Virus record (IMG/VR): IMGVR_UViG_3300045988_122718
Location: 64,001 to 128,000 of that record
Length of the DNA stretch: 64,000 nt
Strand: one strand, 5' to 3'
Source of the DNA: a virus
Position numbers and translations under genes: made by a program. How positions within the stretch are numbered: the first letter of the stretch is position 1; each line of letters starts with the position of its first letter. Positions 8,491 through 57,100 of this stretch are shown piece after piece. The notes below the pieces were generated by a model. The model searched no databases, had not been told where the DNA came from, and worked only from the letters and a program-made list of their open reading frames with translations.

Positions 8491-8497
8491 ATGATAT

Positions 8498-8528
8498 GGA
8501 GGGGTGCTTCGGCACCTCTCCTTTAATT
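8498..8528 (+). terminator. hairpin after the tape-measure gene (possible attenuator or weak terminator)
   Basis: GGAGGGGTGC-TTCG-GCACCTCTCC followed by TTTAATT. The T-run is short. Confidence 0.35.
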
Positions 8529-8558
8529 ACATAAAGTAGTTATAGGAGGTGTGGTCTG

Positions 8559-9662: not shown

Positions 9663-9676
9663 GGAGGTGGCATAAA

Positions 9677-44202: not shown

Positions 44203-44278
44203 TGGAGCACGTGACGAGGCTCGAACTCGCAACAGCCAGATTGGAAATCTGGAACTCTACCAATTGAGCTACACGTGC
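44203..44278 (-). tRNA. tRNA-Gly(UCC)
   Basis: Cloverleaf GCACGTG..CCAGA-TTTCCAA-TCTGG..GCGAG-TTCGAGC-CTCGT-CACGTGC-T-CCA. The CCA is encoded. Confidence 0.9.
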
Positions 44279-44284
44279 ATATAA

Positions 44285-44356
44285 TATTCCACACAGGAGT
44301 CGAACCTGTCTCTCTACGTTCGCGGCGTAGTGTTCTATCCGATGAACTAGTGGAAT
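44285..44356 (-). tRNA. tRNA-Arg(GCG)-like with C33
   Basis: ATTCCAC..CTACG-CCGCGAA-CGTAG..ACAGG-TTCGACT-CCTGT-GTGGAAT. The anticodon loop has C at position 33. No CCA is encoded. Confidence 0.6.
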
Positions 44357-44364
44357 TTGACTTA

Positions 44365-45120
44365 CTATATATCAAATTCTTTGTGTCTACCACAATCTCT
44401 TGATAACCACGTTATATTTCTTTTACCATTACCTTTGTTTGCTCCTCTATATGTAGGAGTTAATGAATGACAATTAGGGCATAACAATGTTAAATTTTCT
44501 TCTTTATTATTTGTTGCATCTCCATCAATATGTTCTATTTCAAGTGGCAAAGTTCCAGTATATGGATTAATTTCACTCCACCCACATTTTGCACATTTAT
44601 TTTCGTATTTATCAAAAATATATTTTTTAATAGACGAAGATAGGTCTATCCATTTATCACCTGTTAATCCATCCCATTCTCCATCTTTCCATTGTTTTAT
44701 TTTTTGTTTATATCTATATTCATTAAAACATTTTGCAGAACAATATTTATTTTTCTTAGGTATTTCTTTATTACAATTAATACAATAATGATGTCCTACT
44801 TTCTTTTTTCTATGTTGGTTGCTATATGTCACAGAGCATGAACGGGAACAAAACTCAATTCTTTTAAAATCACTATTTTTTTGATTATATTTTTGCGAGA
44901 TTTCTTTCCCACAATTTTTACAAAACTTAATATCTAATTCTTCTTTAATGTGCGGACATTTTTCAATCATACAATATTTTATTGTAGATAATTGCTTTTC
45001 AAATGTTTTATGACACCCATCACATTCTACAATATATATAGTATGATTGTCTTTTGTTCTTTTGTCAGATATCCCTATTATTGTATAACATCCATATTTT
45101 TCTCCTATGTGTTTATCCAT
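44365..45120 (-). CDS. HNH endonuclease (multi-Zn-ribbon N-terminus)
   Basis: The C-terminus LEIEHIDGDATNNKEENLTLLCPNCHS is an HNH core. It is embedded in the tRNA array. Confidence 0.8.
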   Translation of the reverse strand: MDKHIGEKYGCYTIIGISDKRTKDNHTIYIVECDGCHKTFEKQLSTIKYCMIEKCPHIKEELDIKFCKNCGKEISQKYNQKNSDFKRIEFCSRSCSVTYSNQHRKKKVGHHYCINCNKEIPKKNKYCSAKCFNEYRYKQKIKQWKDGEWDGLTGDKWIDLSSSIKKYIFDKYENKCAKCGWSEINPYTGTLPLEIEHIDGDATNNKEENLTLLCPNCHSLTPTYRGANKGNGKRNITWLSRDCGRHKEFDI

Positions 45121-45152
45121 TATGTATCACCACGATGTCTATTATTTTAAGA

Positions 45153-45284
45153 TGGTGGGCCTGGAGGAACTCGAATCCTCGACCAATAGCTTAATGGTGG
45201 GAATGGCAGGTGCTGCCCCTACTTGCAAAAGCTTTTCTGAATACACCCCCAAGGCTACTGCTCTACCTACTGAGCTACAGACCC
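45153..45284 (-). tRNA. tRNA-Lys(UUU) interrupted by a 56-nt tRNA-like minihelix
   Basis: GGGTCTG-TA-GCTC..GAGC-A-GTAGC-CTT[56 nt]TTAA-GCTAT-TGGTC-GAGGA-TTCGAGT-TCCTC-CAGGCCC-A-CCA. The length is 76 nt after removal, and the body resembles bacterial tRNA-Lys. Confidence 0.8.
45195..45250 (-). ncRNA. nested tRNA-like minihelix (intron candidate) in tRNA-Lys
   Basis: GGGGGTG-(21 nt)-GTAGG-GGCAGCA-CCTGC-CATTCCC-A-CCA: a 7-bp acceptor-like helix (2 G-U), a 5-bp stem, a 7-nt GGCAGNA loop, a discriminator and CCA. Confidence 0.7.
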
Positions 45285-45287
45285 ATA

Positions 45288-45363
45288 TGGTCTGAGTGGT
45301 GAGTCCCGCCCTCACGGCCTCGTGGTCCCAGGCCACGCGCTCTGCTAACTGAGCTACACCCAG
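45288..45363 (-). tRNA. free-standing tRNA-like gene: Pro(UGG)-type anticodon loop with C33 and non-canonical T-loop GGCGGGA
   Basis: CTGGGTG-TA-GCTC-AGTTAGCA-GAGC-G-CGTGG-CCTGGGA-CCACG-AGGCC-GTGAG-GGCGGGA-CTCAC-CACTCAG-A-CCA. The D-loop lacks GG. Confidence 0.6.
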
Positions 45364-45368
45364 AAATA

Positions 45369-45445
45369 TGGCACCCCGTGTTGGACTCAAACCAACGACA
45401 CATGGCTTAGAAGGCCATTGCTCTGTTCAACTGAGCTAACGGGGC
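45369..45445 (-). tRNA. tRNA-Arg(UCU)
   Basis: GCCCCGT..ATGGC-CTTCTAA-GCCAT..GTTGG-TTTGAGT-CCAAC-ACGGGGT-G-CCA. Confidence 0.85.
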
Positions 45446-45450
45446 ATATA

Positions 45451-45539
45451 TGGCGCGGCGCTGAGGTGTCGATCCCCATTCCTTTCACAGAACCACTAGT
45501 TTTCAAGACTAGGTTGCAAGCCGTTGCAATTAACGCCGC
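45451..45539 (-). tRNA. tRNA-Ser(UGA), class II
   Basis: GCGGCGT..CTAGT-CTTGAAA-ACTAG, a long variable arm, TGGGG-ATCGACA-CCTCA-GCGCCGC-G-CCA. Confidence 0.8.
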
Positions 45540-45649
45540 ATATTTTTGTAATCTCAAACTCCTCCACACAGATTACTGGGCACCCCTTACCTCGAATGCT
45601 AGTTAGTAGCAACAAACGTTTGTGCCGTTTCCACAAATAAAGATACACT

Positions 45650-45844
45650 TTACTGCGTATTAACCTCTGTATATTCAGTACTAGATAAGGTAATCATTCT
45701 TTCGCATCCGTCCTGTGGACAAAAAATATTTGCAACCCCAAGATTATTTATTCCGTCAGACGGATTAAATGCAAATTCACAACCACAATAAGGGCAGATT
45801 GCCTTATAGGTCTTAACTTTGCCTCCCTTGATAATATACTTCAT
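45650..45844 (-). CDS. small Zn-ribbon protein
   Basis: CPYCGC...CPQDGC. ORF with RBS inside the tRNA island. Confidence 0.5.
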   Translation of the reverse strand: MKYIIKGGKVKTYKAICPYCGCEFAFNPSDGINNLGVANIFCPQDGCERMITLSSTEYTEVNTQ

Positions 45845-45855
45845 AGTAACACCTC

Positions 45856-45975
45856 TTAATTAAACTTGCTTAACTGCCGCTTAACCTTACGGATAAGACC
45901 TTCGTTCATAGTCTCGCCTCGTGCCAGAAGCTTTGCTAAACGATTTTCATAATGTTCCTTAGTGCGAAAATTCAT
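45856..45975 (-). CDS. small basic ORF (39 aa)
   Basis: MNFRTKEHYENRLAKLLARGE... with an AGGAGG RBS. Below the ORF-track cutoff. Confidence 0.35.
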   Translation of the reverse strand: MNFRTKEHYENRLAKLLARGETMNEGLIRKVKRQLSKFN

Positions 45976-46001
45976 AATATGTACCTCCTAAAATTTTTGT
46001 A

Positions 46002-46124
46002 TGGCAGGGGTAGCAGGGTTCGAACCTACGATGCGGGAGTCTGGTCAAGGTAGTTGGTACTGCCCCAACTAAATTCACTTGAATACCTTGAAAGTCCCGT
46101 GCCTTACCACTTGGCTATACCCCT
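46002..46124 (-). tRNA. tRNA-Gln(UUG) interrupted by a 49-nt tRNA-like minihelix
   Basis: AGGGGTA-TA-GCC-AAGTGGTAA-GGC-A-CGGGA-CTTT[49 nt]GAC-TCCCG-CATC-GTAGG-TTCGAAC-CCTGC-TACCCCT-G-CCA. The body resembles bacterial tRNA-Gln (GCCAAG.GGUAAGGCA, weak 1-72 pair, G73). Confidence 0.8.
46042..46090 (-). ncRNA. nested tRNA-like minihelix (intron candidate) in tRNA-Gln
   Basis: CAAGGTA-TTCAAGTGAATTTA-GTTGG-GGCAGTA-CCAAC-TACCTTG-A-CCA. Confidence 0.7.
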
Positions 46125-46127
46125 ATA

Positions 46128-46202
46128 TGGTGGATCTGACGTGACTCGAACACGCAACCTCTTCCTTGCAAGGGAAGCTTTCTCCCATTGAAATACAGAC
46201 CC
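46128..46202 (-). tRNA. tRNA-Ala(UGC)
   Basis: GGGTCTG..CTTCC-CTTGCAA-GGAAG..GCGTG-TTCGAGT-CACGT-CAGATCC-A-CCA. G3:U70 is present. Confidence 0.9.
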
Positions 46203-46363
46203 TTATTTTGTGAGGTAACTACACTATGTATACCTAATGTAGCTACTGGCTTTCAAACTCCCCACCTCAAACCATTTTTATCTGTCTCTCCTCTTGGCCA
46301 ACCAGATTTGAGTGATTTGAACGGCGCGCCGTCCTCACATTGATAAAATAGTAAAATCAACAA
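46203..46363 (-). ncRNA. unassigned structured RNA candidate (~135 nt closed by TGTGAGG/CCTCACA)
   Basis: In - sense there is a 7-bp closing helix and the palindrome ACGGCGCGCCGT. Nested helices are TTCAAAT/GTTTGAA and CTCAAAT/GTTTGAG. A 9-bp hairpin is GTAGCTACA/TGTAGTTAC. There is no ORF. It does not fit a tRNA. Confidence 0.35.
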
Positions 46364-46454
46364 TGGCGCGATAGGAAGGCTTCGAACCTTCGCACGGCTT
46401 TCACCGCCTAGCAGATTAGCAATCTACCCTCTTCAACCACTTGAGTACTACCGC
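46364..46454 (-). tRNA. tRNA-Ser(GCU), class II
   Basis: GCGGTAG..GTAGA-TTGCTAA-TCTGC, a long variable arm, GAAGG-TTCGAAG-CCTTC-CTATCGC-G-CCA. Confidence 0.85.
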
Positions 46455-46457
46455 ATA

Positions 46458-46661
46458 TTAATCTAATGTTTTTCCAGTTGCTAATTCAAAAATTAAATTA
46501 TCAACACAAGGAATGTGCATTACCTCTCTCTCATATTGAGTACGATGTTCAATATCATTAATATAGATAGGACAATCTTTACATTCTACATTTTCACAAA
46601 AACGAACAGCTTTTTCTACTACTTTAGAATTCGCAAATTTTATATATTCTTCCCAACGCAT
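46458..46661 (-). CDS. hypothetical Cys-containing protein
   Basis: ORF with a GGAGG RBS (ATG at 46661) directly downstream of a pseudoknot motif. Confidence 0.5.
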   Translation of the reverse strand: MRWEEYIKFANSKVVEKAVRFCENVECKDCPIYINDIEHRTQYEREVMHIPCVDNLIFELATGKTLD

Positions 46662-46678
46662 AAAATCCTCCATAAAAC

Positions 46679-46709
46679 GAGCAGTTTATACAGTGATACT
46701 CAGCACTAT
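46679..46709 (-). ncRNA. H-type pseudoknot motif, copy 1
   Basis: In - sense: ATAGTG-CT-GAGTA-T-CACTGT-ATAAAC-TGCTC. Both stems pair, with G-U pairs valid only in - sense. Confidence 0.55.
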
Positions 46710-46762
46710 CCGTCTGGGTTCCAATATTAGAACCGTCCACAATTGAGTTTTGACCACCATAG

Positions 46763-46837
46763 TGGAGCTGATGGAGAATTTCGAAATCTCGACCTAGTGA
46801 TTACAAATCACTCGCTCTGCCTCTGAGCTACACCAGC
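46763..46837 (-). tRNA. tRNA-Thr(UGU)
   Basis: GCTGGTG..AGTGA-TTTGTAA-TCACT..T-arm GAGAT-TTCGAAA-TTCTC (one mismatch)-CATCAGC-T-CCA. Confidence 0.8.
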
Positions 46838-46891
46838 AGATCTCCTCGTCTTTCCGAGGTGTCAATCACACTTTTACATTAATAATCTTAA

Positions 46892-46920
46892 ATTATTCTT
46901 TAATAGGAAGATGACGTCAA
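46892..46920 (-). promoter_or_regulatory. candidate sigma-A promoter inside the tRNA island
   Basis: TTGACG (46915-46920), 17 nt spacer, AATAAT (46892-46897). It is enclosed by the inverted repeat AATCACAC/GTGTGATT. Confidence 0.4.
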
Positions 46921-46943
46921 TCTGTGTGATTACCTTTTATGTG

Positions 46944-47012
46944 AGGTCTTAATTGGAATCGAACCAACACCTGCCCTACCATAGGGCCGATCTACCATTG
47001 AACTATAAGACC
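46944..47012 (-). tRNA. aberrant tRNA-like gene (anticodon arm GCCCT-ATGGT-AGGGC, 5-nt loop); identity undetermined
   Basis: The acceptor (GGTCTTA/TAAGACC), D-arm and T-arm (GTTGG-TTCGATT-CCAAT) are canonical. The anticodon loop is 2 nt short. Confidence 0.45.
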
Positions 47013-47015
47013 TAT

Positions 47016-47092
47016 GGTGACGCTACCGGGGATCGAACCCGGACACTCCACGGTGAAAGCGTGGTAACTCTACCAATTCGTCCATAGCGCCA
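47016..47092 (-). tRNA. tRNA-Glu(UUC)
   Basis: GGCGCTA..CCACG-CTTTCAC-CGTGG..CCGGG-TTCGATC-CCCGG-TAGCGTC-A-CCA. Confidence 0.85.
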
Positions 47093-47099
47093 TATCTTT

Positions 47100-47130
47100 G
47101 GACAGTTTATACAGTGATGTCCAGCACTGT
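47100..47130 (-). ncRNA. H-type pseudoknot motif, copy 2
   Basis: In - sense: ACAGTG-CT-GGACA-T-CACTGT-ATAAAC-TGTCC. It ends 8 nt before the tRNA-Glu 5' end. Confidence 0.6.
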
Positions 47131-47142
47131 CACTTTTGGGAG

Positions 47143-47227
47143 TGGTAGCGGTGGTGGGCTACGATCCCACACGTCATAAGACATTGGTTTTTGAGACCAA
47201 CCTGTCTACCTGTTCCAGCACACCGCC
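47143..47227 (-). tRNA. tRNA-Leu(CAA), class II
   Basis: GGCGGTG..TTGGT-CTCAAAA-ACCAA, a long variable arm, GTGGG-ATCGTAG-CCCAC-CACCGCT-A-CCA. Confidence 0.8.
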
Positions 47228-47434
47228 ATATTAAGCACAACCTACACTGAGCTAGCCTCGCTCACACTTGCTTTCCCGAACACGTCCCACCCTCGGTTAT
47301 GCTTTGATATTGTTTATCCTATTTTCACAATAACATATGCCTCGTTCTCTTCTTGTTACTGTGGGTCAGTAACTTAGTAGCTTTTCTCTTGTGGATAGCA
47401 CTTATCAATACACCGAGAACCCCAATAGGCGGCA
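47228..47434 (-). ncRNA. unassigned structured non-coding block (207 nt)
   Basis: No ORF. Long-range pairs are GCCT...AGGC and GTTCTC...GAGAAC. Hairpins are GTTACTG-ACCCA-CAGTAAC and TGAGC-GAGGCTA-GCTCA. A D-arm-like TAGCTCAGTGTAGG lies at the 3' end. Confidence 0.3.
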
Positions 47435-47511
47435 TGGTTGCGTGAGGTTAGATTTGAACTAACGATCTTCAGCTTATGGGGCTGACGAGATGACCACTTC
47501 TCTACTCCGCA
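47435..47511 (-). tRNA. tRNA-Met/Ile2(CAU) with C33 and a bulged acceptor stem
   Basis: TGCGGAG-TA-GAGA-AGTGGTCA-TCTC-G-TCAGC-CCCATAA-GCTGA-AGATC-GTTAG-TTCAAAT-CTAAC-CTC(A)CGCA-A-CCA. Confidence 0.6.
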
Positions 47512-47515
47512 GTAT

Positions 47516-47546
47516 CTAGCAGACTATAATGCCGTCTGCTATGGCA
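47516..47546 (-). ncRNA. spacer pseudoknot between tRNA-Ile and tRNA-Met
   Basis: In - sense: ATGCC-A-TAGCAGAC-GGCAT-TATA-GTCTGCTA. It has two interleaved perfect stems. Confidence 0.45.
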
Positions 47547-47566
47547 TCAGAAAGAGGTGTTGCATG

Positions 47567-47719
47567 TGGTCCCCTACCGGTGGATTGAACACCGAACCTC
47601 CCGATTATTGGCCTCCTCAGTAAGTCCTGCCCTTACATCTCTAAATCCTGCTGTTTAGTAGTTCTACTATTAAACTATGAGGAGAAGTCGGGTGCTCTAG
47701 CCAGTTGAGCTAGCAGGGG
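47567..47719 (-). tRNA. tRNA-Ile(UAU) interrupted by a 76-nt tRNA-like element
   Basis: CCCCTGC-TA-GCTC..GAGC-A-CCCGA-CTT[76 nt]ATAA-TCGGG-AGGTT-CGGTG-TTCAATC-CACCG-GTAGGGG-A-CCA. The length is 77 nt after removal. Confidence 0.75.
47609..47684 (-). ncRNA. nested full-length tRNA-like element (intron candidate) in tRNA-Ile
   Basis: CTCCTCA-TA-GTT-TAATAGTAG-AAC-TA-CTAAA-CAGCAGGA-TTTAG-AGAT-GTAAG-GGCAGGA-CTTAC-TGAGGAG-G-CCA. It is cloverleaf-sized, with an 8-nt anticodon-like loop and a GGCAGGA T-loop. Confidence 0.65.
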
Positions 47720-48133
47720 ATATATAATCCGGCTTTTACGGTACGACCAGTAAGATGGACGCGCTTGAATTTCACAATTGCCTAGCGTTTCAGGTACTTT
47801 TTAGGAGTTTGGATGTAATACCTTATCCATTCACGCATAGTCCATTAGTACCATGGGCTATAGGACTCACTCCAAGTGGCCGGATTCAACTCCCCTGTAA
47901 ATTCAGGTCTTCCTATCCCCTACCCTTGAAGGATGTTTACCATACTTTTATACCGCTGGCACACATCAGGCGGCTGTGGTAATGATAGCAAGCGGAGCCG
48001 TGCATGACTCCATTTCATAGTGTTTCGTCAATTGCCTTCAGCTCATCCAAGTAATATCAACAGTTAGCAAATTCTGTCGAGAGCTTATTCTCATCGGTAA
48101 TCACTTATGAAATTTGCACTACTCACTATCATC
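47720..48133 (-). ncRNA. large unassigned structured non-coding block (414 nt)
   Basis: It is visibly GC-richer than the flanks, has no credible ORF or RBS, and lies between tRNA-Asn and tRNA-Ile. Its 3' ~55 nt are repeated at 48291-48345. Confidence 0.35.
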
Positions 48134-48210
48134 TGGCGGGAGTAGAAGGACTTGAACCTACGACATCTTGCTTAACAGGCAAGCGCTCTAACCAACTGAG
48201 CTATACTCCC
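48134..48210 (-). tRNA. tRNA-Asn(GUU)
   Basis: GGGAGTA..CTTGC-CTGTTAA-GCAAG..GTAGG-TTCAAGT-CCTTC-TACTCCC-G-CCA. Confidence 0.85.
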
Positions 48211-48213
48211 AAA

Positions 48214-48290
48214 TGGCGACCCATACCAGACTTGAACTGGTGTCCTCTTGCGTGACAGGCAAGCGTGATACTCTTCTTCACCAATGGGCC
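48214..48290 (-). tRNA. tRNA-Asp(GUC)
   Basis: GGCCCAT..CTTGC-CTGTCAC-GCAAG..ACCAG-TTCAAGT-CTGGT-ATGGGTC-G-CCA. Confidence 0.85.
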
Positions 48291-48408
48291 ATATTATGCC
48301 GGCTTTTACGGCATATTTAGCTAGAATATGCTTGAATTCCACAAAAGATGTTTTCTCTATATTAGACACAGTTATTCCCCGGTAGAAAATCTAACACCCG
48401 CTGCGTCT

Positions 48409-48493
48409 TGGTGGGCCAGGTTGGTGTCAATCCAACTACTCTCGAAGGAAACGGATTTACAATCCGCCGCGTTTGCCGATTCGCTACTGACCC
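48409..48493 (-). tRNA. tRNA-Tyr(GUA), class II
   Basis: GGGTCAG..GCGGA-TTGTAAA-TCCGT, a long variable arm, GTTGG-ATTGACA-CCAAC-CTGGCCC-A-CCA. Confidence 0.85.
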
Positions 48494-48550
48494 ATATAAC
48501 TATACTTTAGTATTTTGTTTTAATGTTTGAGAATTACTTGCCAAGGTCAA

Positions 48551-48683
48551 TGGTGCGGGTAGCGAGACTCGAACTCGCACGGATATTTCACCGAGGGATT
48601 TTTGGTGGATATTGTAGGTACTGCCCCTACCAAAGCACTTGCTATACCCAAGTCCCTTATGTCTGCCATTCCATCATACCCGC
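48551..48683 (-). tRNA. tRNA-Leu(UAA), class II, interrupted by a 47-nt tRNA-like minihelix
   Basis: GCGGGTA..A-AGGGA-CTT[47 nt]AAAA-TCCCT-CGGTGAAATATCCGT-GCGAG-TTCGAGT-CTCGC-TACCCGC-A-CCA. The length is 86 nt after removal. AAGGGA.UUAAAAUCCCUCGG matches bacterial tRNA-Leu(UAA). Confidence 0.8.
48603..48649 (-). ncRNA. nested tRNA-like minihelix (intron candidate) in tRNA-Leu
   Basis: GGGTATA-GCAAGTGCTTTG-GTAGG-GGCAGTA-CCTAC-AATATCC-A-CCA. Confidence 0.7.
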
Positions 48684-48731: not shown

Positions 48732-50285
48732 TTAAGAGTTCTTCAATGCGGCTTCCACCGCATCATATCTATCACTCATAAGCGTCTCAACTAGACACTC
48801 ATAAGGATCGGGTTTACCACTCATAACCATCTTGCAAACATTAGTGGAGAATCCGCTAACAAGAGCAACACCAAGGTCATTCTCCTTTACATGAATAGTT
48901 CCAGTGCGAGAATTTACATTCCAGAAGACTAGTCTAGGCATCTTATACCCAGCATACTCGAAACGCTTTTTGATCACATTAAAAAGTCTTGCATTAGGTC
49001 TATTAATACCATATCTAGCGGAACCATCACATGTTGCACAAGAGTCAAACTCCATGTCTGAAATAATGAGTACATTCTTAGGCATATCCTCTTGCTTCAT
49101 ACGACCATTTACCGCAGTAGTAAGAATCAAATCAAACACCTTTTCAATGTTTGTATTCGAACACTCGTCATGACCATACGCAACACATAACTTATCTCTC
49201 AGAGAATCGCACTGACTAAAATCAACCAACTGAGGTCTGCTAGAGAAAGTAATATATTTATCTTTAAAGTCTCCAGAAGAATGTTCTGCAAAGTAAATTG
49301 CAAGTGCATTTGCAACTTCAAGTGCAGTAACACGGCTACTTTCACCAACGTTACAACACATAGAAGCAGAACCATCTGCAACTACAATGGTGTTTCCACA
49401 CTCATTTACTGTATCAGGCAAAGCCCTCCAAAGAGATTCAAGAGTTGCATCATACTTGTTGACATAATTATTCCATCCAATTGTGTTAGAATACTTATGT
49501 ACAATGTCGTGAGGGAACAAAGTTCTAGCATTAATCTTAGTTTCACCATTTTCAAGCTTACTTAGATACTCTCTGCGACGCTCCTTATCATTACGAAGGA
49601 AAGCTCCGTTATAAATGAGATTTGCACGAGAAGGAACCGTTTCGTACTTAATGTCTCCCCATTTCTTTGCAGACATCTTACTTTCTACAATGTCAATGTA
49701 AGAACGCAGAGAAGAAAGAATCTTACGATACTTACGCTCTGTCATTCCAAGATTCTTGCAAATGTATCTTGCATCCATCTTAGTTTTTGCAGAAGAAGCA
49801 TTCACAGAAGGAAGCCACTTTGCAAGAAGAGATACGGGCTTATTATCAGCCATATTTGCAATGTCATCGGTGAGCTGCTTTTTGATGATGTCAAGAATAA
49901 CACCATCTACATCTGTTCCAAACAGACACCATAGGTCATCATAACGACCATACTCACTCACTAGAGGAGCAAGATGCTTAACAATGTCAACGTCATCCTT
50001 TACCATATTCTTAAGAATCACTCTGAACAAATGTCTCTCACCAAGACCACCATGAACATCTCTGGCGAAGAACAGCCAACGTAGAGCCATCATTTTATCT
50101 TCAAAATAAGCCTTAGTAAACTTATTATAGATATTCTCCTCACTCATACCACGCATAGAAGAAACTGCAAAGTTTAGGTCAACCAGTTCCTTACCAGAGG
50201 TACGATACCCAAGAGCGCCATTCTCAGTTACTGAATAGTTGAAATCCTCGTTCAGAGTATTCTTTACTGCATTCATAAAAGACAT
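48732..50285 (-). CDS. TROVE/DUF2828-like + vWA domain protein (Ro60-related candidate)
   Basis: The N-terminus VTENGALGYRTSGKELVDLNF...RWLFFARDVHGGLGER resembles DUF2828/TROVE. The C-terminal half has the vWA MIDAS motif VVADGSASM (D-x-S-x-S). A GGAGG RBS precedes the ATG at 50285. The size is Ro60-like. Confidence 0.6.
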   Translation of the reverse strand: MSFMNAVKNTLNEDFNYSVTENGALGYRTSGKELVDLNFAVSSMRGMSEENIYNKFTKAYFEDKMMALRWLFFARDVHGGLGERHLFRVILKNMVKDDVDIVKHLAPLVSEYGRYDDLWCLFGTDVDGVILDIIKKQLTDDIANMADNKPVSLLAKWLPSVNASSAKTKMDARYICKNLGMTERKYRKILSSLRSYIDIVESKMSAKKWGDIKYETVPSRANLIYNGAFLRNDKERRREYLSKLENGETKINARTLFPHDIVHKYSNTIGWNNYVNKYDATLESLWRALPDTVNECGNTIVVADGSASMCCNVGESSRVTALEVANALAIYFAEHSSGDFKDKYITFSSRPQLVDFSQCDSLRDKLCVAYGHDECSNTNIEKVFDLILTTAVNGRMKQEDMPKNVLIISDMEFDSCATCDGSARYGINRPNARLFNVIKKRFEYAGYKMPRLVFWNVNSRTGTIHVKENDLGVALVSGFSTNVCKMVMSGKPDPYECLVETLMSDRYDAVEAALKNS

Positions 50286-50530
50286 TTTCTTTCCTCCATT
50301 TTTTTGATTTATTTCTAAATCCCAAGACACATTATTATGTACAATCTCCACATTAAAAATTTGCTGTTAGTGTCTTTGGAGTTTATTCAACGAGACGCCA
50401 AAATAAAACCATTAGTAAAAATATCATTTTCATCTTTTTAAATTACTGTAAGCGTCTCTATGTAAGGCAAGGCACCATCAATACAAATCCATATCATATT
50501 ATGTAAAGTTGCTGTTAGTGCCTTTTTAAA

Positions 50531-50648
50531 GTCTCCTGACAGGACTTGAACCTGCGACCTCTGGTTTAACAGACCAATTAGAAACTTGCTATTTAAGGCT
50601 TTTACAAGTCTCGTTATTAAGCGCTCTATCCGACTGAGCTACAGGAGA
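50531..50648 (-). tRNA. tRNA-Asn(GUU) copy with a 44-nt insertion between the D-arm and anticodon stem
   Basis: TCTCCTG-TA-GCTC-AGTCGGATA-GAGC-G-[44 nt]-TTGGT-CTGTTAA-ACCAG-AGGTC-GCAGG-TTCAAGT-CCTGT-CAGGAGA-C. No CCA is encoded. Confidence 0.55.
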
Positions 50649-50657
50649 CATATTTAT

Positions 50658-51311: not shown

Positions 51312-51340
51312 TATTATAGCACATTAATTTTGTTTTGTCA
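51312..51340 (-). promoter_or_regulatory. sigma-A promoter (tandem, upstream of the previous one)
   Basis: TTGACA (51335-51340, overlapping the TGA of the PurA-like gene), 17 nt spacer, TGCTATAAT (-10 at 51312-51317). Confidence 0.6.
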
Positions 51341-52486
51341 AGTATCTTTTTTAAATAATTTTCTAGTTTCTTCATAAGACAGGTACTTAATATTAATGCC
51401 CGTCAAATTCAGCAGTTTTTCATTTTTAAACTCGTTAACATGAGTTACTGCCAGAGACACCTCATAGGCAATATCCCCAATATCTTCCTTAATTCTTTGC
51501 ATAAGCTCACCAACATCAAGATGCCCATACCGAATAGACCCCTGATACTGGTTTGTAATATTGGTCTTGTCATCAATGTTAATGTTAATCTCCGACTTGT
51601 CACATTCACATTCAAAATCACCAGCACCATGCTTCGTCATATATGTTCTAGTAACATAGCACACTTCAACGTTTGCATTAGGTAAATACTTTTCAATGAT
51701 TATATGAGGATTTGCAATGCCAGTATTGCTAGGAGTCGTATTATCATAATACTGAACATGACGCTGATCCAACAGCAATCCTTGCCCATTTTCAAATATA
51801 ACGTTATCAAACTTTTGCAAAATCCTACTATAATCAAATACTACATGAGAATGTATAAACTGCACATCGTCAATAAAGTTATAAATCAAATTGTCGGATG
51901 CCAAAATATCTTCCCATTCCTGCAAAACTTCAGGACTAGCCTTTAGCAGCCTCTTAGACGTATATTCATCCCTGACACGCTTAAGAAATGCGACCTGCTC
52001 GTCCTTAGTCATATTATAAAACTGCTGGAAAGACGGACTTGTAGTATTCCTATATCTAAGAACAGTTTCCCAAATACCCATACCACAAGAGCCATACCGA
52101 TTTTTGCCACGACTATCCTCAAGGATTTGATTTGTAATCATATCATATGGAGTAGACCATCTGCAATTCCAATGACTATAAACACGAGGTGCATAGCCTA
52201 ATGCCTTCAGTTCCTCGTACTCTTTTCTAAAAGTCATAGGATTTAGAATATACTCTTCCCCAAAATAAGTATCTGCTCCCGCAAAGGTTCCTGAACCAAA
52301 ATGGTGGAACACATGTCTAATGTCATCTGGAGTAACTACAGTATGTCCTCTTTGTGCGCCGCCATTGCATAGAGCAACGATACAAGATTCATTCCGCTTA
52401 CTTGCTTCGGCACAAAAGTAATCGGTCATCAGACCTTTTCCCTCGTCGCCAAAATTGCTGCCAATTACTACCTTAACATTAGACAT
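51338..52486 (-). CDS. adenylosuccinate-synthetase-like (PurA family) enzyme, divergent
   Basis: P-loop VVIGSNFGDEGKGLMTDYF, GGAQRGHTV and YGSCGMGIWET parallel the PurA motifs (GDEGKG, N-A-GHT, TTG-GIGP). The ATG at 52486 follows AAAGGA. Confidence 0.65.
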   Translation of the reverse strand: MSNVKVVIGSNFGDEGKGLMTDYFCAEASKRNESCIVALCNGGAQRGHTVVTPDDIRHVFHHFGSGTFAGADTYFGEEYILNPMTFRKEYEELKALGYAPRVYSHWNCRWSTPYDMITNQILEDSRGKNRYGSCGMGIWETVLRYRNTTSPSFQQFYNMTKDEQVAFLKRVRDEYTSKRLLKASPEVLQEWEDILASDNLIYNFIDDVQFIHSHVVFDYSRILQKFDNVIFENGQGLLLDQRHVQYYDNTTPSNTGIANPHIIIEKYLPNANVEVCYVTRTYMTKHGAGDFECECDKSEININIDDKTNITNQYQGSIRYGHLDVGELMQRIKEDIGDIAYEVSLAVTHVNEFKNEKLLNLTGINIKYLSYEETRKLFKKDT

Positions 52487-52500
52487 GTGTTTATCCTTTC

Positions 52501-53355
52501 TTACCAAGAAATACCTTCACTAGATGTTGCTACATTGCCACCAGAAAACGCATTGGTGACAATATCAATGATGTCGTCTGCAATCTTATCAACAGATGTA
52601 TCCTTCAGATGATTCTCGTCCAGAAGCTGTCCGAAAGTCTTATGAACATCCTCCTGATAACGACCATAACCATGCTTGACATACAGGTGATAGATATCAA
52701 ACTTCTCGGATGCATCAATGTAAAGCTGCGTCGTTTCAATATCATTCTGTAGGTCATCACCAGTCACTGCAGATAGAGCCTTCTTCGGCAGATATGGATT
52801 CATAGGCTCATCACCCATAGTGATAATGACACCCTTCTGTCCACGATTCCAGCAGTCTAGCTTCGTGTGGTTAAGGCCGAAATACCATGCGGCGCTATAA
52901 GACTCATAAGCATTACCTCCGCCGCCGCCCTCAAAATAAATCTTATCAAGCTGTTCTGCGATACGGATATCAGACTCAAACTGGGATGCCTGAATTGGAG
53001 CGCAATCGTAAGCAAGGTCCCCAATGCCCATAACCATAAACTCTACGTCTGCGATATTCTCGTATAGTTTGGTCATTACTACGTTGATCTGCTTTGCAAC
53101 TTCCATAGCCGCCTTGCCCATGCTACCAGTTACATCGAGTGCTAGAATAACAGGCTTGGTATTAGGATGCTCCACAGAATCAACACACTCACGCATTACA
53201 TTCTTGGGATCAAGGTCTGCTACTAGCATTCTAGATCTGAAATTGTCCTGCACATTAGAGGACATTCCAGTGACTACACCGTCCATTGACACGTTGTACC
53301 CCTTGGTAGTCGTATAAGAGGTAAAAGCGCTTCTAGTCCAACTGCCACCGCCCAT
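52501..53355 (-). CDS. von Willebrand factor A (vWA) domain protein
   Basis: The MIDAS motif is LALDVTGSMG (D-x-T/S-x-S), with a beta-alpha pattern typical of vWA. Confidence 0.7.
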   Translation of the reverse strand: MGGGSWTRSAFTSYTTTKGYNVSMDGVVTGMSSNVQDNFRSRMLVADLDPKNVMRECVDSVEHPNTKPVILALDVTGSMGKAAMEVAKQINVVMTKLYENIADVEFMVMGIGDLAYDCAPIQASQFESDIRIAEQLDKIYFEGGGGGNAYESYSAAWYFGLNHTKLDCWNRGQKGVIITMGDEPMNPYLPKKALSAVTGDDLQNDIETTQLYIDASEKFDIYHLYVKHGYGRYQEDVHKTFGQLLDENHLKDTSVDKIADDIIDIVTNAFSGGNVATSSEGISW

Positions 53356-54088: not shown

Positions 54089-54117
54089 ATTATAGCACCA
54101 GATGTTTTATTTATCAA
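54089..54117 (-). promoter_or_regulatory. sigma-A promoter (tandem)
   Basis: TTGATA (54112-54117, overlapping the dnaE TGA), 17 nt spacer, TGCTATAAT (-10 at 54089-54094). Confidence 0.55.
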
Positions 54118-57100
54118 GAGGGTAATTGCACGTTTATCAAGTAGTTCGTCAGCCATTTCTCCGTGACAGAATAATTCTTTTGCCACTGGCCATCGACCAA
54201 CTTTGACTTCGGTCGCTGCTCCCAATGGAAATTCAAAAAGCACCCCTTATCAAAAGGATTTTTCTCATATGCCCTTTTTTGCACTTTATATGTCACGATC
54301 TTTCCGTCCCAGAGTTGATAAATCTGTATCTTTGGAGAATATCGGCAATTCACATCCATGACATAACCAATATCCTTTTTGCTTTCATCCTTATAACAAA
54401 TATAACCTAAATACTCTGACTGCCATGTAAATATGCTTTGCATAGGTACGGTGCAATTGCTCGGAATCATACAACAAAGTTCTGTGATAAAGCCGTTTGT
54501 GTCCTGTACTCGCCACTGCTTCTCTGTCTCCGTACAATACTTGGTTAAAATCTCCATAGGAAGTTTACACTTATCCTTCTTGATAATTTTCTTTCCGCCA
54601 TATGCATTATACATTTCAACTGTACGTAGTAAAGTACCTATAGTTCCGAACTCAGAAAAATAATCGAGCTTAATCAAAATGTCTAACATTCTACTGTTTC
54701 CAGGAAACGCCCTAATGATATCTACGAATGAGTCAAAATGCTCATCTTTCATCGCATAAAGTTTATCCGATGTTTCTGCGTTAATAAATTTGACCGAAGA
54801 CATGCCTTTATAGATCGTATTTTCTGTCTTATCACAGTTATAATCAGACTTAGAGTGTCTAAACTTTATGTCCTTCAATGTAATACCGAAGTACGGAAGT
54901 TCATCAATAAGCTTTGCCGTTCTATCCATATCGCCACTATACATAGTAAGTACTACAGTAAAGTATTCAAGAGGATAATGCGACTTCAAATACGCTCCGT
55001 ACATTGAGTCTATTGCCACACTAAGACTATGTGATGCATTGAACGAGTAGTGTGCAGCATCATTAACAACTTGCCATGTTTCTGCGAAGCCTTTTTCTGT
55101 ACCAACATTTTTAATCCAACCTTGTAGAAGCTCTGATTCAAGTTTCTTCAACTCATCCTCTTTGAATTTCTTCTTTGCAATCTTCTTGATGGTATCATAG
55201 GTGCCCTTTTCTTCCATACCTAACCACACAAGATAGCTCATGATATTCTCTTGGTACATAAGAAAATGGAATGAGTCTTCTAGAATATCATCAAGCTCTT
55301 TGACGCCTGTAGTATATGGCTTCCTCTCTACAAATGTATTTAACAATGAAGCAAAGCCAGGGCGAATAGCGGCTACATATGCAGACATCTCTGCTAAGTT
55401 TCTAGGTTTATACCTCTTAAGAATCTGCTTATCATAATCACTATCGGCCTGATTTATTGTCGTAGTAAGACCTTTAGCATAAATATCCCACACCTTATCA
55501 TCGCAGTTTTTGATAAGTGTCGTAATATTGTCAATCGGTCTACCAATCATTTCATATACATCATGAATAATCTGATATACAGAAACAGTTAAATAATCGT
55601 TCTTTAGATACTTATAAACATCACAATTATAACCATCAAGACAGCAACAAGTTACGTCTCCGACCTTAATTAGACCTATCATTTCAGATATTTTATCGTT
55701 GGACAGAAGAAAACTACAAGGACTTGGTGCAACACTTTCTACTACTCCACGGAAAATCTTGCTACCCTCTATCAAATCCTTCCACTTAGGGTCATCCAAA
55801 TGATTTTCCAAATTTTTCGCCACATCATCATACTCTGAAATGTTAAGGCCATTAGCTTTACACCAAAGACGGAACGCAGAAGATTCCTGTAGTGGCTTAT
55901 ACGCAACCATATAATAGATTCCGTCTTCGCCAAGAATATCCTTACTCGCTTGAATAACAGGTGTTACATCCGCAAAGTTAAGATCAATATCTGGGATGCT
56001 GCGACTAGAAAGAATACGCTCTGCCGACATAAATCTCGTAGGATAGAGTTTGATAGGGGCACTAATACGGTCTACCTCGGTAAGCCCTAACAACTTGTTG
56101 ATATAAAAAGACACTGCCGATCCACGCCCGCTACGAGTTAAAATGGCATCATAATCCTTGACTGCCTTTTCTACAACGTAATGGTCTAGAATAAAATAGT
56201 CTGCCATACCACAGTCTTCAATAATCTTATATTCGTACTTGATTTGCTCGATATATTCCTTGTGACGTTCTTTAGGCACATTGACCTTTTCTCTGCGCCA
56301 TCCTTCATTGATAAGCTTTCGCAAAATAGCATTGCTATCGCCTTCAACTACTTTAGGAATTTTAAACTCCTTATCAATATAAATACCTTCGGCATTATCG
56401 AATACAAGGGTATTATTTAGGGCTTCTTCCACTTCTCCTCTTGTGAGTATCCCCTGTTTCTCATAGCGTTCAAAGATAGTATCAGAATCAGGATAGTCAA
56501 GACAGAATCCTGATTCTTCTTCATATACAATGCCTTTAGCCTTTAAGAATAAGTCACGATACTTGGCATCTTCTGGTAAAATATAGTGAGAGTCATTGGC
56601 ATGGATAATAGGCACACCAGTCTCTCTATGCAAAGCAATAATCTTTTTATTATACTCTATCTGGTGAATATCATTATGATTTTGCACCTCAAGATAAAAA
56701 TTTTTCCCAAAATGTTTATAAAGAGGTTCAAAAAAGTTAGCGCTCCAATAATCTGGTTCAATCGGTATCTTTTCGTAAATTGGCTTTTTAACAATCCGAT
56801 CTCCCACATGATAACTGGGGCCAGAATCATTAACCACTACGTCTCTATATCCGATAATATTTCTTGTTTCTTCATAATATTTTGGTTTAAACATTCTCCC
56901 AGCAATACAAGCAGTCGTTACAACAACTTCTTCTGCCGGTAGACTAAGGAGGAGTTTGAGATCAATTCTTGGCTTATAATAATACCCTTCAGTATTGGCC
57001 ACAGACATAATCCTGTTGATTTCTCTACGAGCATTTTCTGTTAAAGCCACAAGCATTATATGATAATTTGTTCGACTTGTTTTATCATTGATGTCGTCAA

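Follow-up and report, generated by a model that had tools for sequence, protein, structure and literature searches.

A tRNA-like element nested in the anticodon loop of a phage tRNA-Ile(UAU) gene suggests a route for tRNA intron removal

In textbook accounts, the tRNA introns of bacteria and phages are group I ribozymes, and protein-dependent tRNA splicing is regarded as an archaeal and eukaryal trait. Group I introns are recognized by a catalytic core (P3-P9), a length of at least ~200 nt and a terminal G, and bulge-helix-bulge introns by a pair of 3-nt bulges flanking a 4-bp helix at the splice sites. Eukaryotic tRNA-Ile(UAU) and tRNA-Lys(UUU) carry introns, and in archaea some tRNA introns are the source of a functional small RNA. 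An embedded tRNA shape can also act as a processing signal, for RNase P on its 5' side and RNase Z on its 3' side, as in mascRNA (MALAT1/MEN-beta) and the t-elements of plant mitochondria. In phage T4, a kinase/phosphatase (Pnkp) and an RNA ligase (Rnl1) mend tRNA-Lys that has been cut by an anticodon nuclease. Our literature search returned no mechanism for introns of the kind described here and a single precedent, the tRNA introns of Lak megaphages, described as 'enigmatic'; one of them "may encode a tRNA", and no mechanism was proposed for them (Devoto et al. 2019, Nat Microbiol, PMC6784885).

Here we describe a tRNA-Ile(UAU) gene whose anticodon loop is split, between U34 and A35, by a 76-nt tRNA-like unit, in a 64,000-nucleotide stretch of viral DNA (IMG/VR record IMGVR_UViG_3300045988_122718; the whole stretch is called the window below). 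Three further interrupted tRNA genes and a set of RNA repair genes lie in the same window (Table 1).

Table 1. Coordinates of the interrupted tRNA genes, the parts of the tRNA-Ile insert and the RNA repair genes in the window.
Feature	Position	Strand	Description
Interrupted tRNA-Ile(UAU) gene, encoded CCA	47567..47719	minus	153 nt; sequence reading and ARAGORN intron mode
5' exon of tRNA-Ile	47685..47719	minus	CCCCTGC TA GCTC AACTGGCTA GAGC A CCCGA CTT; acceptor 5' strand, D arm, anticodon stem 5' strand, C32 U33 U34
3' exon of tRNA-Ile	47567..47608	minus	ATAA TCGGG AGGTT CGGTG TTCAATC CACCG GTAGGGG A CCA; A35 U36 A37 A38, anticodon stem 3' strand, variable loop, T arm, acceptor 3' strand, A73, CCA
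tRNA-like insert (intron), own acceptor nt 1 to own CCA	47609..47684	minus	76 nt; covariation and RNAalifold consensus
Insert sequence, first part	47684..	minus	CTCCTCA TA GTTT AATAGTA GAAC TA CTAAA CAGCAGGA TTTAG
Insert sequence, rest	..47609	minus	AGAT GTAAG GGCAGGA CTTAC TGAGGAG G CCA
Insert acceptor 5' strand, CTCCTCA	47678..47684	minus	pairs with 47613-47619; 7-bp stem
Insert D-like arm, GTTT-AATAGTA-GAAC	47661..47675	minus	without G18 G19; 100% paired across Ile-hosted variants
Insert anticodon-like arm, CTAAA-CAGCAGGA-TTTAG	47641..47658	minus	8-nt loop, no U33; 97.5% paired
Insert T-like arm, GTAAG-GGCAGGA-CTTAC	47620..47636	minus	abuts acceptor 3' strand directly; invariant among Ile-hosted copies
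Insert acceptor 3' strand TGAGGAG, G73, CCA	47609..47619	minus	3' junction immediately after CCA
tRNA-Lys(UUU) gene	45153..45284	minus	56-nt minihelix insert 45195-45250 at 34/35
Free-standing tRNA, same odd-elbow lineage	45288..45363	minus	Rfam tRNA, 43.8 bits; missed by ARAGORN
tRNA-Gln(UUG) gene	46002..46124	minus	49-nt minihelix insert 46042-46090 at 35/36
tRNA-Leu(UAA) gene, type II	48551..48683	minus	47-nt minihelix insert 48603-48649 at 34/35
Phosphoesterase	33833-34381	minus	RNA end-healing gene
P-loop polynucleotide kinase	35284-36195	minus	RNA end-healing gene
Nucleotidyltransferase	36386-37195	minus	RNA end-healing gene
RNA ligase, candidate exon-sealing enzyme	37473..38636	minus	Pfam RNA_ligase and PHA02142 OB domain

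The closest likeness is to the Lak introns. Both families interrupt the anticodon loops of phage tRNAs, both have insert-free alleles in related genomes, and the Lak introns that we examined in Table S6 (Tyr, Phe, Thr and Gly) each show an acceptor/T-arm module near the 3' end (PMC6784885); tRNA finders also misplace the boundary of Lak introns by one base, as ARAGORN does in this window. However, Lak introns carry a 5' hairpin and an A-rich spacer ahead of the tRNA-like module, lack CCA, are predicted to start about one base past the anticodon and reside in Tyr, Phe, Thr and Gly genes, whereas each insert of the window family consists solely of the tRNA-like unit, running from +1 to CCA, and lies at sites from 34/35 to 36/37, and its hosts are exclusively U34 tRNAs (Ile UAU, Leu UAA, Lys, Gln and Glu).

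Other systems share parts of this anatomy. As in mascRNA and t-elements, a tRNA-shaped element with a coaxial 12-bp acceptor/T stack, a T loop and a 3' discriminator sits in a longer RNA, and in those systems a small CCA-ended RNA is released; but they mark transcript ends whose flanks are never rejoined, and the CCA of mascRNA is added after cleavage, whereas the flanks here are two halves of another tRNA that need ligation. Archaeal and eukaryal introns spliced by an endonuclease with RtcB or Trl1 are likewise short, lie in the anticodon loop and have their exons ligated, but they are placed at 37/38 and defined by a bulge-helix-bulge, in contrast to the 34/35 site and tRNA-shaped intron of the Ile gene. 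We rejected a bulge-helix-bulge here because the 5' site directly adjoins a helix of 7-8 bp and the 3' site falls within a single-stranded stretch of 7-8 nt. Group I introns share the bacterial and phage setting, an anticodon-loop site (34/35 in tRNA-Leu(UAA)), U at −1 and a sporadic distribution, but the 76-nt insert has neither their length, nor a catalytic core, nor a terminal G; anatomy and Rfam searches also led us to reject known small ribozymes. The T4 Pnkp/Rnl1 pathway rejoins a U34 tRNA that has been broken in its anticodon loop, and the window carries an analogous gene set, but the T4 enzymes repair host-inflicted damage and remove no encoded insert, and their ligase is Rnl1 whereas that of the window is Rnl5-type.

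Default ARAGORN and Rfam both leave the interrupted Ile gene undetected, and the intron mode of ARAGORN detects it with the label Arg(UCU). We rejected this label because the TAT anticodon is uninterrupted in homologous hosts, three of which (in contigs L006, L007 and L050) have an unbroken CTTAT ahead of an insert at 36/37; the window also contains a distinct Arg(tct) gene. Comparison with homologous hosts and insert-free alleles fixes the boundary of the 5' exon. With the insert removed, the exons meet as GAGCACCCGACTT|ATAATCGGGAGG (CTT|ATAA) in a canonical cloverleaf with the loop CUUAUAA, which ARAGORN calls tRNA-Ile(tat). A preliminary description, made from the letters of the window, had named the host as tRNA-Ile(UAU) and predicted this loop; both hold, with CTTATAA carried by insert-free homologues of the gene. 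The UAU anticodon is predicted to read AUA without lysidine.

The same boundary logic resolves the other interrupted genes. ARAGORN labels the Ile, Lys, Gln and Leu genes as Arg, Thr, Glu and Pro; the call for the Lys gene, Thr(tgt), is off by one base, and its calls for the three genes other than Ile each duplicate an uninterrupted gene, which also counts against Arg(UCU). Excision from +1 to CCA yields four anticodons otherwise missing from the window, so that these isoacceptors are present there in interrupted form only, and every spliced host is called as a canonical tRNA.

All features that the preliminary description had listed for the nested element are present at their positions when read on the minus strand. 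Its D-like arm exists as described, although the stem, given there as 3 bp, can be extended to 4 bp (GTTT/GAAC) with one U.G pair. The element has the four-arm cloverleaf, 7-bp acceptor stem, discriminator and CCA of a tRNA, and lacks a 7-nt anticodon loop with U33 and the canonical elbow (a TTCRANY T loop and D-loop G18 G19; its D loop is AATAGTA). No match to Rfam RF00005 was found on 47609-47684 at E<=1. From the 8-nt loop without U33, the non-canonical T loop and the lack of an Rfam tRNA match, we read the 76-nt element as tRNA-like and not as a decoding tRNA. The earlier wording, a tRNA-like gene inside a tRNA gene, is borne out by the covariation-backed cloverleaf and by relatives whose nested elements are normal tRNAs.

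The best explanation of the insert is a degenerate tRNA from a phage lineage with an unusual T loop, GGCAGNA. This loop type recurs in the window's other three inserts and in free-standing phage tRNAs, and full free-standing tRNAs that carry it score 41-50 bits against RF00005. The free-standing tRNA of the window has the T loop GGCGGGA, a D loop without GG and the anticodon loop CCTGGGA, with a homologous acceptor stem in L075 and L158. The 47-56-nt inserts of the Lys, Gln and Leu genes have no anticodon arm; they share the T arm GTARG-GGCAGNA-CYTAC with the 76-nt copy and retain a small hairpin in place of the D arm. It is plausible from this shared arrangement, as the preliminary description had suggested, that the 76-nt copy resembles the ancestor of these minihelices.

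Nested elements of this form far exceed chance. A strict structural scan of the window and 66 related loci returned 56 elements (23 unique) against 1 in shuffled sequence; it superseded an earlier loose scan, whose 135 matches against 77 in shuffles reflected a high false-positive rate. In the 12-bp acceptor/T stack, 98.6% of cells are paired, with compensatory changes at 11 of the 12 pairs, and slid controls reach 34-49%. The geometry is constant: 7 + 5 bp without a spacer, followed by the discriminator and CCA. Acceptor pairs in the inserts of relatives include CACTACA/TGTAGTG, CGCTGCA/TGCAGCG and CATCGTA/TACGATG.

The Ile-hosted cloverleaf was examined across eight distinct variants gathered by host flanks only. 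Pairing reaches 99.4%, and the acceptor, D and anticodon-like stems all contain compensatory pairs; pair 12-22 of the D-like arm, for instance, is GC in five sequences and UA in three, and pair 29-42 of the anticodon-like arm is UA in four, AU in three and GC in one. Relatives thus support all four stems through covariation, and RNAalifold independently predicts the same cloverleaf. Anticodon-like loops in the inserts of relatives include CATCTGGA, CCGCGGA and AGGATAA. The single-sequence minimum free energy fold replaces the D and anticodon-like arms with one long central hairpin, which we rejected because it is only 80.6% paired across relatives and shows zero compensatory change.

Insert boundaries are exact. 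Insert-free orthologues of the Gln gene (L003, 13675) and the Leu gene (L003, 11669) differ from the interrupted forms by exactly the insert, leaving the boundaries unambiguous. For an Ile-hosted cloverleaf, the syntenic contig L268 lacks exactly positions 2198-2269 of L171, and the BLAST alignment of the two breaks at 2197|2270 against 5689|5690. Syntenic insert-free alleles therefore differ by exactly the unit from acceptor nucleotide 1 to CCA, and the inserts are always exact units whose removal restores a 7-nt loop. No insert-free allele of this exact Ile host was found in viral contigs; a metagenome scan found homologous insert-free Ile alleles. A T precedes every insert at all three sites used (34/35, 35/36 and 36/37), which would occur by chance with a probability of ~0.01 (arithmetic from loop composition with 7 independent events); the ordinary tRNA genes of the phage also have T at −1.

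Related phages carry many insert variants. The tRNA-Ile genes of L006, L007 and L050 hold a normal, amber-suppressor-type tRNA(CUA) that default ARAGORN detects, the inserts of L002, L004 and L005 end in A-CAA and not G-CCA, and unrelated inserts with the T loops GTCATCA, TTCGAGT and TTCAAGT occupy the same sites. Relatives carry either the interrupted or the insert-free form, and in L008 a nested Gln gene coexists with an insert-free one. Given presence and absence among closely related phages, differing inserts in one tRNA and differing sites, the nested element behaves as a mobile or turnover-prone insertion. A BLAST search of ~50,000 phage genomes with the 153-nt gene matched only the 5' exon, in Arg-annotated tRNA genes, and the insert was absent from every isolate among them. 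The nearest isolates by DNA polymerase are Clostridium phages. When one genome of each prokaryotic species was scanned for the T-arm 17-mer, the 20 matches were all attributable to chance and none was a prophage copy.

Selection has maintained the interrupted hosts. In seven insert-bearing Ile host alleles every pair is formed (100%), 11 of 21 pairs show compensatory changes and the CTTATAA loop is invariant. Because perfect, compensated cloverleaves have been kept despite the interruption, the hosts are probably live genes that must be spliced; we infer splicing from this conservation of the host tRNA, and we also infer the choice of cutting and joining enzymes set out below.

We tentatively propose, giving the idea slightly less than an even chance, that the tRNA-Ile intron is cut by ordinary tRNA end-trimming enzymes and resealed by an RNA ligase, so that the gene encodes a functional tRNA. 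Because the insert spans exactly its own mature ends, both intron-exon junctions coincide with normal tRNA trimming sites, and the nested tRNA(CUA) of relatives, if functional, would need processing at exactly both junctions. RNase P, which in bacteria prefers U(−1), would recognize the 12-bp acceptor/T stack, the U at −1 and the NCCA tail of the insert and cut the 5' junction (47685|47684), leaving the 5' exon with a 3'-OH. A tRNA 3'-end endonuclease (RNase Z-like) would cut right after the encoded CCA, giving the 3' exon a 5'-phosphate. The exons would be kept together by the stems of the host tRNA itself and then sealed by an RNA ligase, most likely the Rnl5-type enzyme of the phage; the adjoining kinase and phosphoesterase could heal other end types. 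The freed 76-nt CCA-ended RNA would be a by-product or have a role of its own.

The window ligase matches a PHROG RNA ligase family at 1.6e-60 and the Naegleria gruberi RNA ligase (PDB 5cot) at E 1.5e-39, and is of the Rnl5 (Naegleria/Deinococcus) and not the Rnl1 type. It lies, with the kinase and phosphoesterase, ~9 kb from the tRNA-Ile gene and 6-14 kb from the tRNA cluster. Homologues occur in many contigs with nested tRNAs, but this co-occurrence does not favour one model over another, since ligases of this kind also act in tRNA repair. Pfam scans of ~50 window ORFs found no RNase P, RNase Z or splicing-endonuclease gene, so the cutting enzymes would come from the host or from another part of the phage genome. 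For a DUF2828 protein, a PDB sequence search gave no match.

Several observations bear on the individual steps of the RNase P and RNase Z route. Characterized Rnl5 ligases seal duplex nicks and not loops, which counts against the ligase step, and the non-canonical T loop and missing G18/G19 might weaken recognition by RNase P. In bacteria of the kind infected by the nearest isolates, the usual 3' maturation of CCA-encoding genes is exonucleolytic trimming, a process that would degrade the 3' exon. Some RNase Z enzymes cut just past an encoded CCA, require a 5'-matured substrate and accept tRNAs without a D, T or anticodon arm, whereas CCA is a strong inhibitor of the Bacillus subtilis enzyme (1520-fold with Mg2+, 5.8-fold with Co2+) (PMC7479834). 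That inhibition, in view of the relationship to Clostridium phages, speaks against the route, as does the good representation of the A-CAA variant. The extra 5' hairpin of Lak introns is unexplained by a pure RNase P and RNase Z scheme.

Cutting at both junctions by a dedicated endonuclease of phage or host, followed by healing and sealing, is a serious if unlikely alternative. Such an enzyme would recognize the host anticodon stem, an internal loop of 2-3 nt and 7-8 nt, and the insert helix, and would leave 2',3'-cyclic phosphate and 5'-OH ends for the phage kinase, phosphoesterase and ligase to mend, on the model of fungal Trl1 splicing or T4 Pnkp/Rnl1 repair. It would give work to the full healing-and-sealing gene set that adjoins the tRNA cluster, where RNase P and RNase Z products need sealing only, although those healing genes are equally explained as a defence against host anticodon nucleases. 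It would also sidestep the CCA inhibition of RNase Z, tolerate the CAA variant and suit Lak introns, which with their extra 5' segment require more than RNase P. Yet no candidate was found in the window and the junction is not a bulge-helix-bulge; the exact tRNA-shaped unit from +1 to CCA, with its 12 stacked pairs, is left unexplained, and RNase P would cut the 5' junction anyway wherever the nested element is a true tRNA. A rather improbable reading, compatible with the splicing models, makes the released RNA the payload, a decoy or regulator made in quantity, for example to sponge up host toxins or enzymes whose substrates are tRNA acceptor ends, with the host tRNA as its vehicle for expression and processing. 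The T arm is nearly invariant while acceptor stems drift freely, which suggests sequence-specific recognition, four copies occur in a single genome, and tRNA-like elements with the same T loop stand free of any host tRNA in L126, L076, L104 and L174. Against this, insert-free alleles are so common among close relatives that the released RNA would be dispensable, and the same sites are filled by unrelated inserts with other T loops.

We consider it very unlikely that a selfish or accidental tRNA-derived sequence simply inactivated tRNA-Ile, with RNase P now yielding halves and a stray RNA. The presence/absence polymorphism and the several insert types do resemble mobile DNA, and default tRNA finders do not detect the gene; but a dead gene would not be expected to keep complete, compensated pairing and an invariant anticodon loop across divergent alleles, to form a canonical tRNA after splicing in every case, to account for four anticodons that have no other gene in the window, or to accept only exact units that restore a 7-nt loop. 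Self-splicing or self-cleavage, by a miniature group I-like intron or a small ribozyme, is exceedingly improbable. The bacterial tRNA introns described to date are group I introns in anticodon loops with U at −1, and the classic tRNA-Leu(UAA) group I intron is located at 34/35. The inserts, however, measure 47-85 nt, far short of a group I core, and end in A, not G; Rfam gave no intron or ribozyme match at the gathering threshold over the whole window or at E<=1 around the cluster, and the same sites hold unrelated sequences whose only common feature is the tRNA shape.

On the RNase P and RNase Z reading, a broader and more doubtful suggestion is that the inserts form a further intron class, a tRNA mimic with ends set by RNase P and a post-CCA cut and with exons joined by a phage repair ligase, which could also arise and spread via RNA. 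A mature, CCA-ended tRNA-like RNA would be ligated by the repair ligase into an anticodon loop that had been cut on the 3' side of a uridine, for instance by a host anticodon nuclease, and the ligated product would be copied back to DNA. Such an origin would explain why the inserts are exact mature-tRNA units, why they always follow U and why they are confined to U34 tRNAs.

If functional, the interrupted genes would imply that tRNAs can be spliced by a combination of RNase P, a nuclease acting at 3' ends and a ligase of RNA repair, and phage 'RNA repair' ligases would gain a housekeeping substrate. The unexplained Lak tRNA introns would become experimentally approachable, because the substrates in this window are far simpler, the intron being a tRNA-like unit only. 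Standard tRNA finders miss or misassign the interrupted genes and miss the whole GGCAGNA T-loop lineage of phage tRNAs, so that phage tRNA repertoires and the codon-usage inferences drawn from them are biased. The amber-suppressor-type tRNAs nested in the tRNA-Ile genes of relatives tie the phenomenon to stop-codon recoding.

The tRNA cluster of the window lies on the minus strand at roughly 44.2-48.7 kb and includes a tRNA-Ile(UAU) gene whose anticodon loop is interrupted after C32-U33-U34. Default ARAGORN called 13 tRNA genes in this cluster, none at 47567-47719, and the Rfam tRNA model matched three window genes with large internal insertions, this gene not being among them. All parts of the insert itemized in a preliminary description were located in the minus-strand sequence at the coordinates it gave, and the T-like stem runs straight into the acceptor 3′ strand, as it would in a genuine tRNA.

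Features of the window and inserts of the host tRNAs
Feature	Coordinates	Strand	Description
Interrupted tRNA-Ile(UAU)	47719..47567	minus	tRNA with encoded CCA
Insert	47684..47609	minus	76 nt
Insert acceptor stem		minus	CTCCTCA/TGAGGAG (sequence reading)
Insert D-like arm		minus	GTTT-AATAGTA-GAAC, counting U.G pair (sequence reading)
Insert anticodon-like arm		minus	CTAAA-CAGCAGGA-TTTAG (sequence reading)
Insert variable region		minus	AGAT (sequence reading)
Insert T-like arm		minus	GTAAG-GGCAGGA-CTTAC (sequence reading)
Insert 3′ end		minus	G73 + CCA (sequence reading)
Gln-host inserts			49-nt GGCAGTA-loop at 35/36; 48-nt GTCATCA-loop at 34/35; also 71-nt and 85-nt
Lys-host inserts			56-, 61- and 75-nt
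Ile-host inserts			49-nt and 72-77-nt, including normal tRNAs with CUA anticodon
Free-standing odd-elbow tRNA	45288-45363	minus	Rfam tRNA match; T loop GGCGGGA; D loop without G18/G19; anticodon loop CCTGGGA, C at position 33
tRNA cluster	44203-48683	minus	Most genes with ATAT or TAT upstream, T at -1, encoded CCA
Pro(tgg), ARAGORN	46943-47012		Within cluster, without CCA end
Met(cat), ARAGORN	47440-47511		Within cluster, without CCA end
HNH endonuclease gene	44365-45120		Within cluster
tRNA-like gene	50530-50649	minus	Rfam tRNA 42.3 bits; no CCA; extra roughly 44-nt hairpin between D arm and Asn-type anticodon arm
DUF2828/DUF7788 gene	48732-50351		PHROG 'RNA-binding protein'; tRNA-like gene just upstream
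RNA repair cassette	33833-39843	minus	Phosphoesterase, polynucleotide kinase, RlaP-like nucleotidyltransferase, Rnl5-type RNA ligase, small ORF, HD-domain protein
Adenylosuccinate-synthetase homologue	51338-52507	minus	Divergent, 389 aa, Pfam E 7e-33; phage replication module
DNA polymerase III alpha	54114-57317	minus	Adjoins the above homologue
C5 cytosine methyltransferase/NUMOD1 and ribonucleotide reductase intein	24735-27061 and 19820-23236	minus	Methyltransferase in N- and C-terminal ORFs with NUMOD1 (homing-endonuclease-type) ORF between; intein in reductase large subunit

The junction sequence is compatible with both Arg(UCU) and Ile(UAU) readings. We retained Ile(UAU), the identity first proposed, because homologous hosts in related contigs L006, L007 and L050 carry another insert at 36/37 (...CGACTTAT-insert-AA) and keep the TAT anticodon intact, the syntenic position of related contig L008 holds a tRNA-Ile(tat) without interruption, and insert-free metagenome homologues have the anticodon loop CTTATAA. 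On these three observations the ARAGORN intron-mode call of Arg(UCU), with its intron two bases further 3′, was rejected. Under the rule that an insert extends from acceptor nucleotide 1 to CCA, the ARAGORN Thr, Glu and Pro calls in the window become Lys(UUU), Gln(UUG) and Leu(UAA), none duplicating an uninterrupted window gene; the interrupted Leu host shows a long variable arm, as a tRNA-Leu should.

Relatives were gathered by flanking protein (44 loci, on IMG/VR contigs of about 85-170 kb), by host-tRNA flanks only and by T-arm motif. A strict structural scan recovered 56 nested elements (23 unique) versus 1 in shuffled sequence, and in further contigs (L068, L118, L171, L178) 10 matches, 3 of them doubtful, versus 1 in shuffles. 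Across the strict-scan set, which had been selected for pairing, 98.6% of cells in the 12-bp acceptor/T stack are paired and 11 of 12 pairs show compensatory changes (slid controls, 34-49%); the Ile-hosted set, collected through host flanks alone, is therefore the fairer test. All Ile-hosted variants have perfect 7-bp acceptor stems differing in sequence (CTCCTCA, CACTACA, CGCTGCA), and over these eight variants 99.4% of cloverleaf cells pair, with compensatory pairs in each of the acceptor, D and anticodon-like stems. RNAalifold arrives at the cloverleaf unaided, and the results bear out the earlier proposal of a tRNA-like element inside a tRNA gene, at a modest covariation depth of three or four independent lineages with a consistent signal. 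The single-sequence MFE, in which one long hairpin replaces the D and anticodon-like arms, was rejected (only 80.6% paired in relatives, no compensation), and dozens of independent contigs rule out an assembly artefact.

The elbow of these elements, a GGCAGNA T loop with an AAYAGTA D loop (without G18/G19), also occurs outside inserts. A T-arm motif scan of viral contigs gave well-formed acceptor/T stacks at about 48 of 119 sites among the matches listed, many being free-standing full-length tRNAs, in tRNA clusters from unrelated metagenomes; ARAGORN detected none at the 119 motif sites listed, and the free-standing GGCAGNA tRNAs tested score 41-50 bits with the Rfam tRNA model. Phage tRNAs with this elbow constitute a widespread lineage and, since free-standing members share it, the nested elements are degenerate members of that lineage. 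In the short inserts the acceptor stem and the T arm remain and a small hairpin replaces the D arm, which fits the suggestion that they are deletion derivatives but falls short of proving derivation. GGCAGNA-type tRNAs were also seen in contigs L075, L097, L101, L102, L112, L123 and many of L067-L184, and CCA-ended tRNA-like elements with this T loop stand free, with no host tRNA, as a 56-nt minihelix in L126 (~2547-2602, plus strand) and as longer elements in L076, L104 and L174.

Several neighbouring observations concern other RNAs and genes. The tRNAs nested at 36/37 of tRNA-Ile(UAU) in L006 (12179), L007 (12170) and L050 are normal-looking CUA tRNAs of amber-suppressor type (ARAGORN label 'Pyl') whose acceptor stems covary (GGGAATA/TATTCTC versus GTGAGAA/TTCTTAC). 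A 96-nt tRNA-like gene at L009 12485, shared by L010, L011, L012, L022 and L035 and called Ile(tat) by ARAGORN, lacks CCA and combines an 8-bp acceptor stem with a long extra arm and the loop CCTATAC, in which U33 is missing. Around the D arm it is similar to the nested element of the window. Genes like the tRNA-like gene beside DUF2828/DUF7788 form arrays of 4-6, with a conserved hairpin and ACAGCAA motif, at about 8300-9900 in loci L014-L044. This RNA and the adjacent protein are possibly a Y-RNA-like/Ro-like pair in a phage (compare PMC4201824); a PDB sequence search with the DUF2828 protein gave no match. ROOL RNAs (Rfam RF03087) adjoin tRNA clusters in L112 (9153-9754, 348 bits) and, beside nested tRNAs, in L171 (6380-7012, 297 bits); the window has none. 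Near the adenylosuccinate-synthetase homologue lie SHMT, aminotransferase, dCMP deaminase, ThyX and dUTPase genes. Phage PurZ enzymes, makers of 2-aminoadenine genomes, belong to the adenylosuccinate-synthetase family.

Precisely the insert, with a boundary that cannot slide, separates the window's Leu and Gln genes from their insert-free orthologs in close relatives. L268, a contig syntenic with L171, lacks exactly L171 2198-2269, a cloverleaf insert in tRNA-Ile (alignment break 2197/2270 versus 5689/5690). One host tRNA can hold unrelated inserts in different phages; presence/absence and differing inserts together are what an insertion that is mobile or often replaced would produce. The interrupted hosts appear to be under selection as tRNAs, because all spliced forms are called canonical tRNAs, pairing stays at 100% across seven divergent interrupted tRNA-Ile alleles, in which 11 of 21 pairs are compensatory and the anticodon loop never varies, and four isoacceptors (Ile UAU, Lys UUU, Gln UUG, Leu UAA) are present in the window only as interrupted genes. 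Hosts so selected would need the insert removed and the loop resealed, and comparative sequence evidence makes it likely that the tRNA gene is functional and that its tRNA-derived intron is removed; a dead gene, its anticodon loop broken by the insert, is improbable beside such conservation. All hosts found are U34 tRNAs that decode split-box codons ending in A (Ile UAU, Leu UAA, Lys UUU, Gln UUG, Glu UUC); Thr UGU, Arg UCU and Ala UGC of the same clusters also have C-U-U at 32-34, yet never carry an insert. The insert-bearing set overlaps known targets of anticodon nucleases and wobble-uridine modification enzymes, an overlap that may reflect either the sites accessible to insertion or the purpose of the inserts.

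Because the insert is an exact mature-tRNA-shaped unit, its 5′ junction would be a textbook RNase P site. RNase P, recognising the 12-bp stack, T loop, NCCA tail and U at -1, would leave a 3′-OH on the 5′ exon, an RNase Z-like cut right after CCA would leave a 5′-phosphate on the 3′ exon, and a ligase alone would suffice to join them. We advance this specific pathway tentatively, as a plausible candidate. At each of the three sites used, the base just before an insert is always U (chance roughly 0.01 by our arithmetic), the phage's ordinary tRNA genes likewise have T at -1, and a nested real tRNA(CUA) would need cleavage at both junctions to work. Among the weak points, one insert variant ends CAA, not CCA, and ligases of the window ligase's type are known as nick-sealers. 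Some RNase Z enzymes cut just past an encoded CCA, need 5′ maturation first and tolerate a missing D, T or anticodon arm (PMC7479834). Against the pathway, CCA inhibits the RNase Z of B. subtilis (PMC7479834), which we count as a further weak point together with the phage looking Clostridium-like by DNA polymerase.

The candidate ligase, linked to the inserts by proximity alone, is related to Naegleria gruberi RNA ligase (PDB 5cot, E 1.5e-39), and a P-loop polynucleotide kinase, a phosphoesterase and a nucleotidyltransferase lie beside it. With such neighbours, a dedicated endonuclease followed by heal-and-seal is conceivable, if unlikely. That the released RNA is the real product, a reading compatible with splicing, we consider rather doubtful. 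Self-splicing is highly improbable; by its anatomy and by Rfam searches the insert is neither a group I nor a bulge-helix-bulge intron, nor any Rfam ribozyme. Under the RNase P and RNase Z-like pathway, tRNA shape would be the cutting signal, as in mascRNA and t-elements, whereas the flanks of the present inserts must be rejoined.

Our literature search returned the Lak megaphages as the sole precedent and found no follow-up to their introns. Their tRNA genes contain "enigmatic introns", one of which "may encode a tRNA", and no mechanism was proposed (PMC6784885). As here, insert-free alleles exist, with the predicted boundary one base off, and each Table S6 intron examined holds an acceptor/T-arm module; Lak introns differ in a hairpin and A-rich spacer before the module, no CCA and other tRNAs (PMC6784885). 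The present inserts are a stripped-down version of the Lak-type intron, nothing but the tRNA-like unit, and the finding belongs to an already known, unexplained kind, phage tRNA introns, in a new form.
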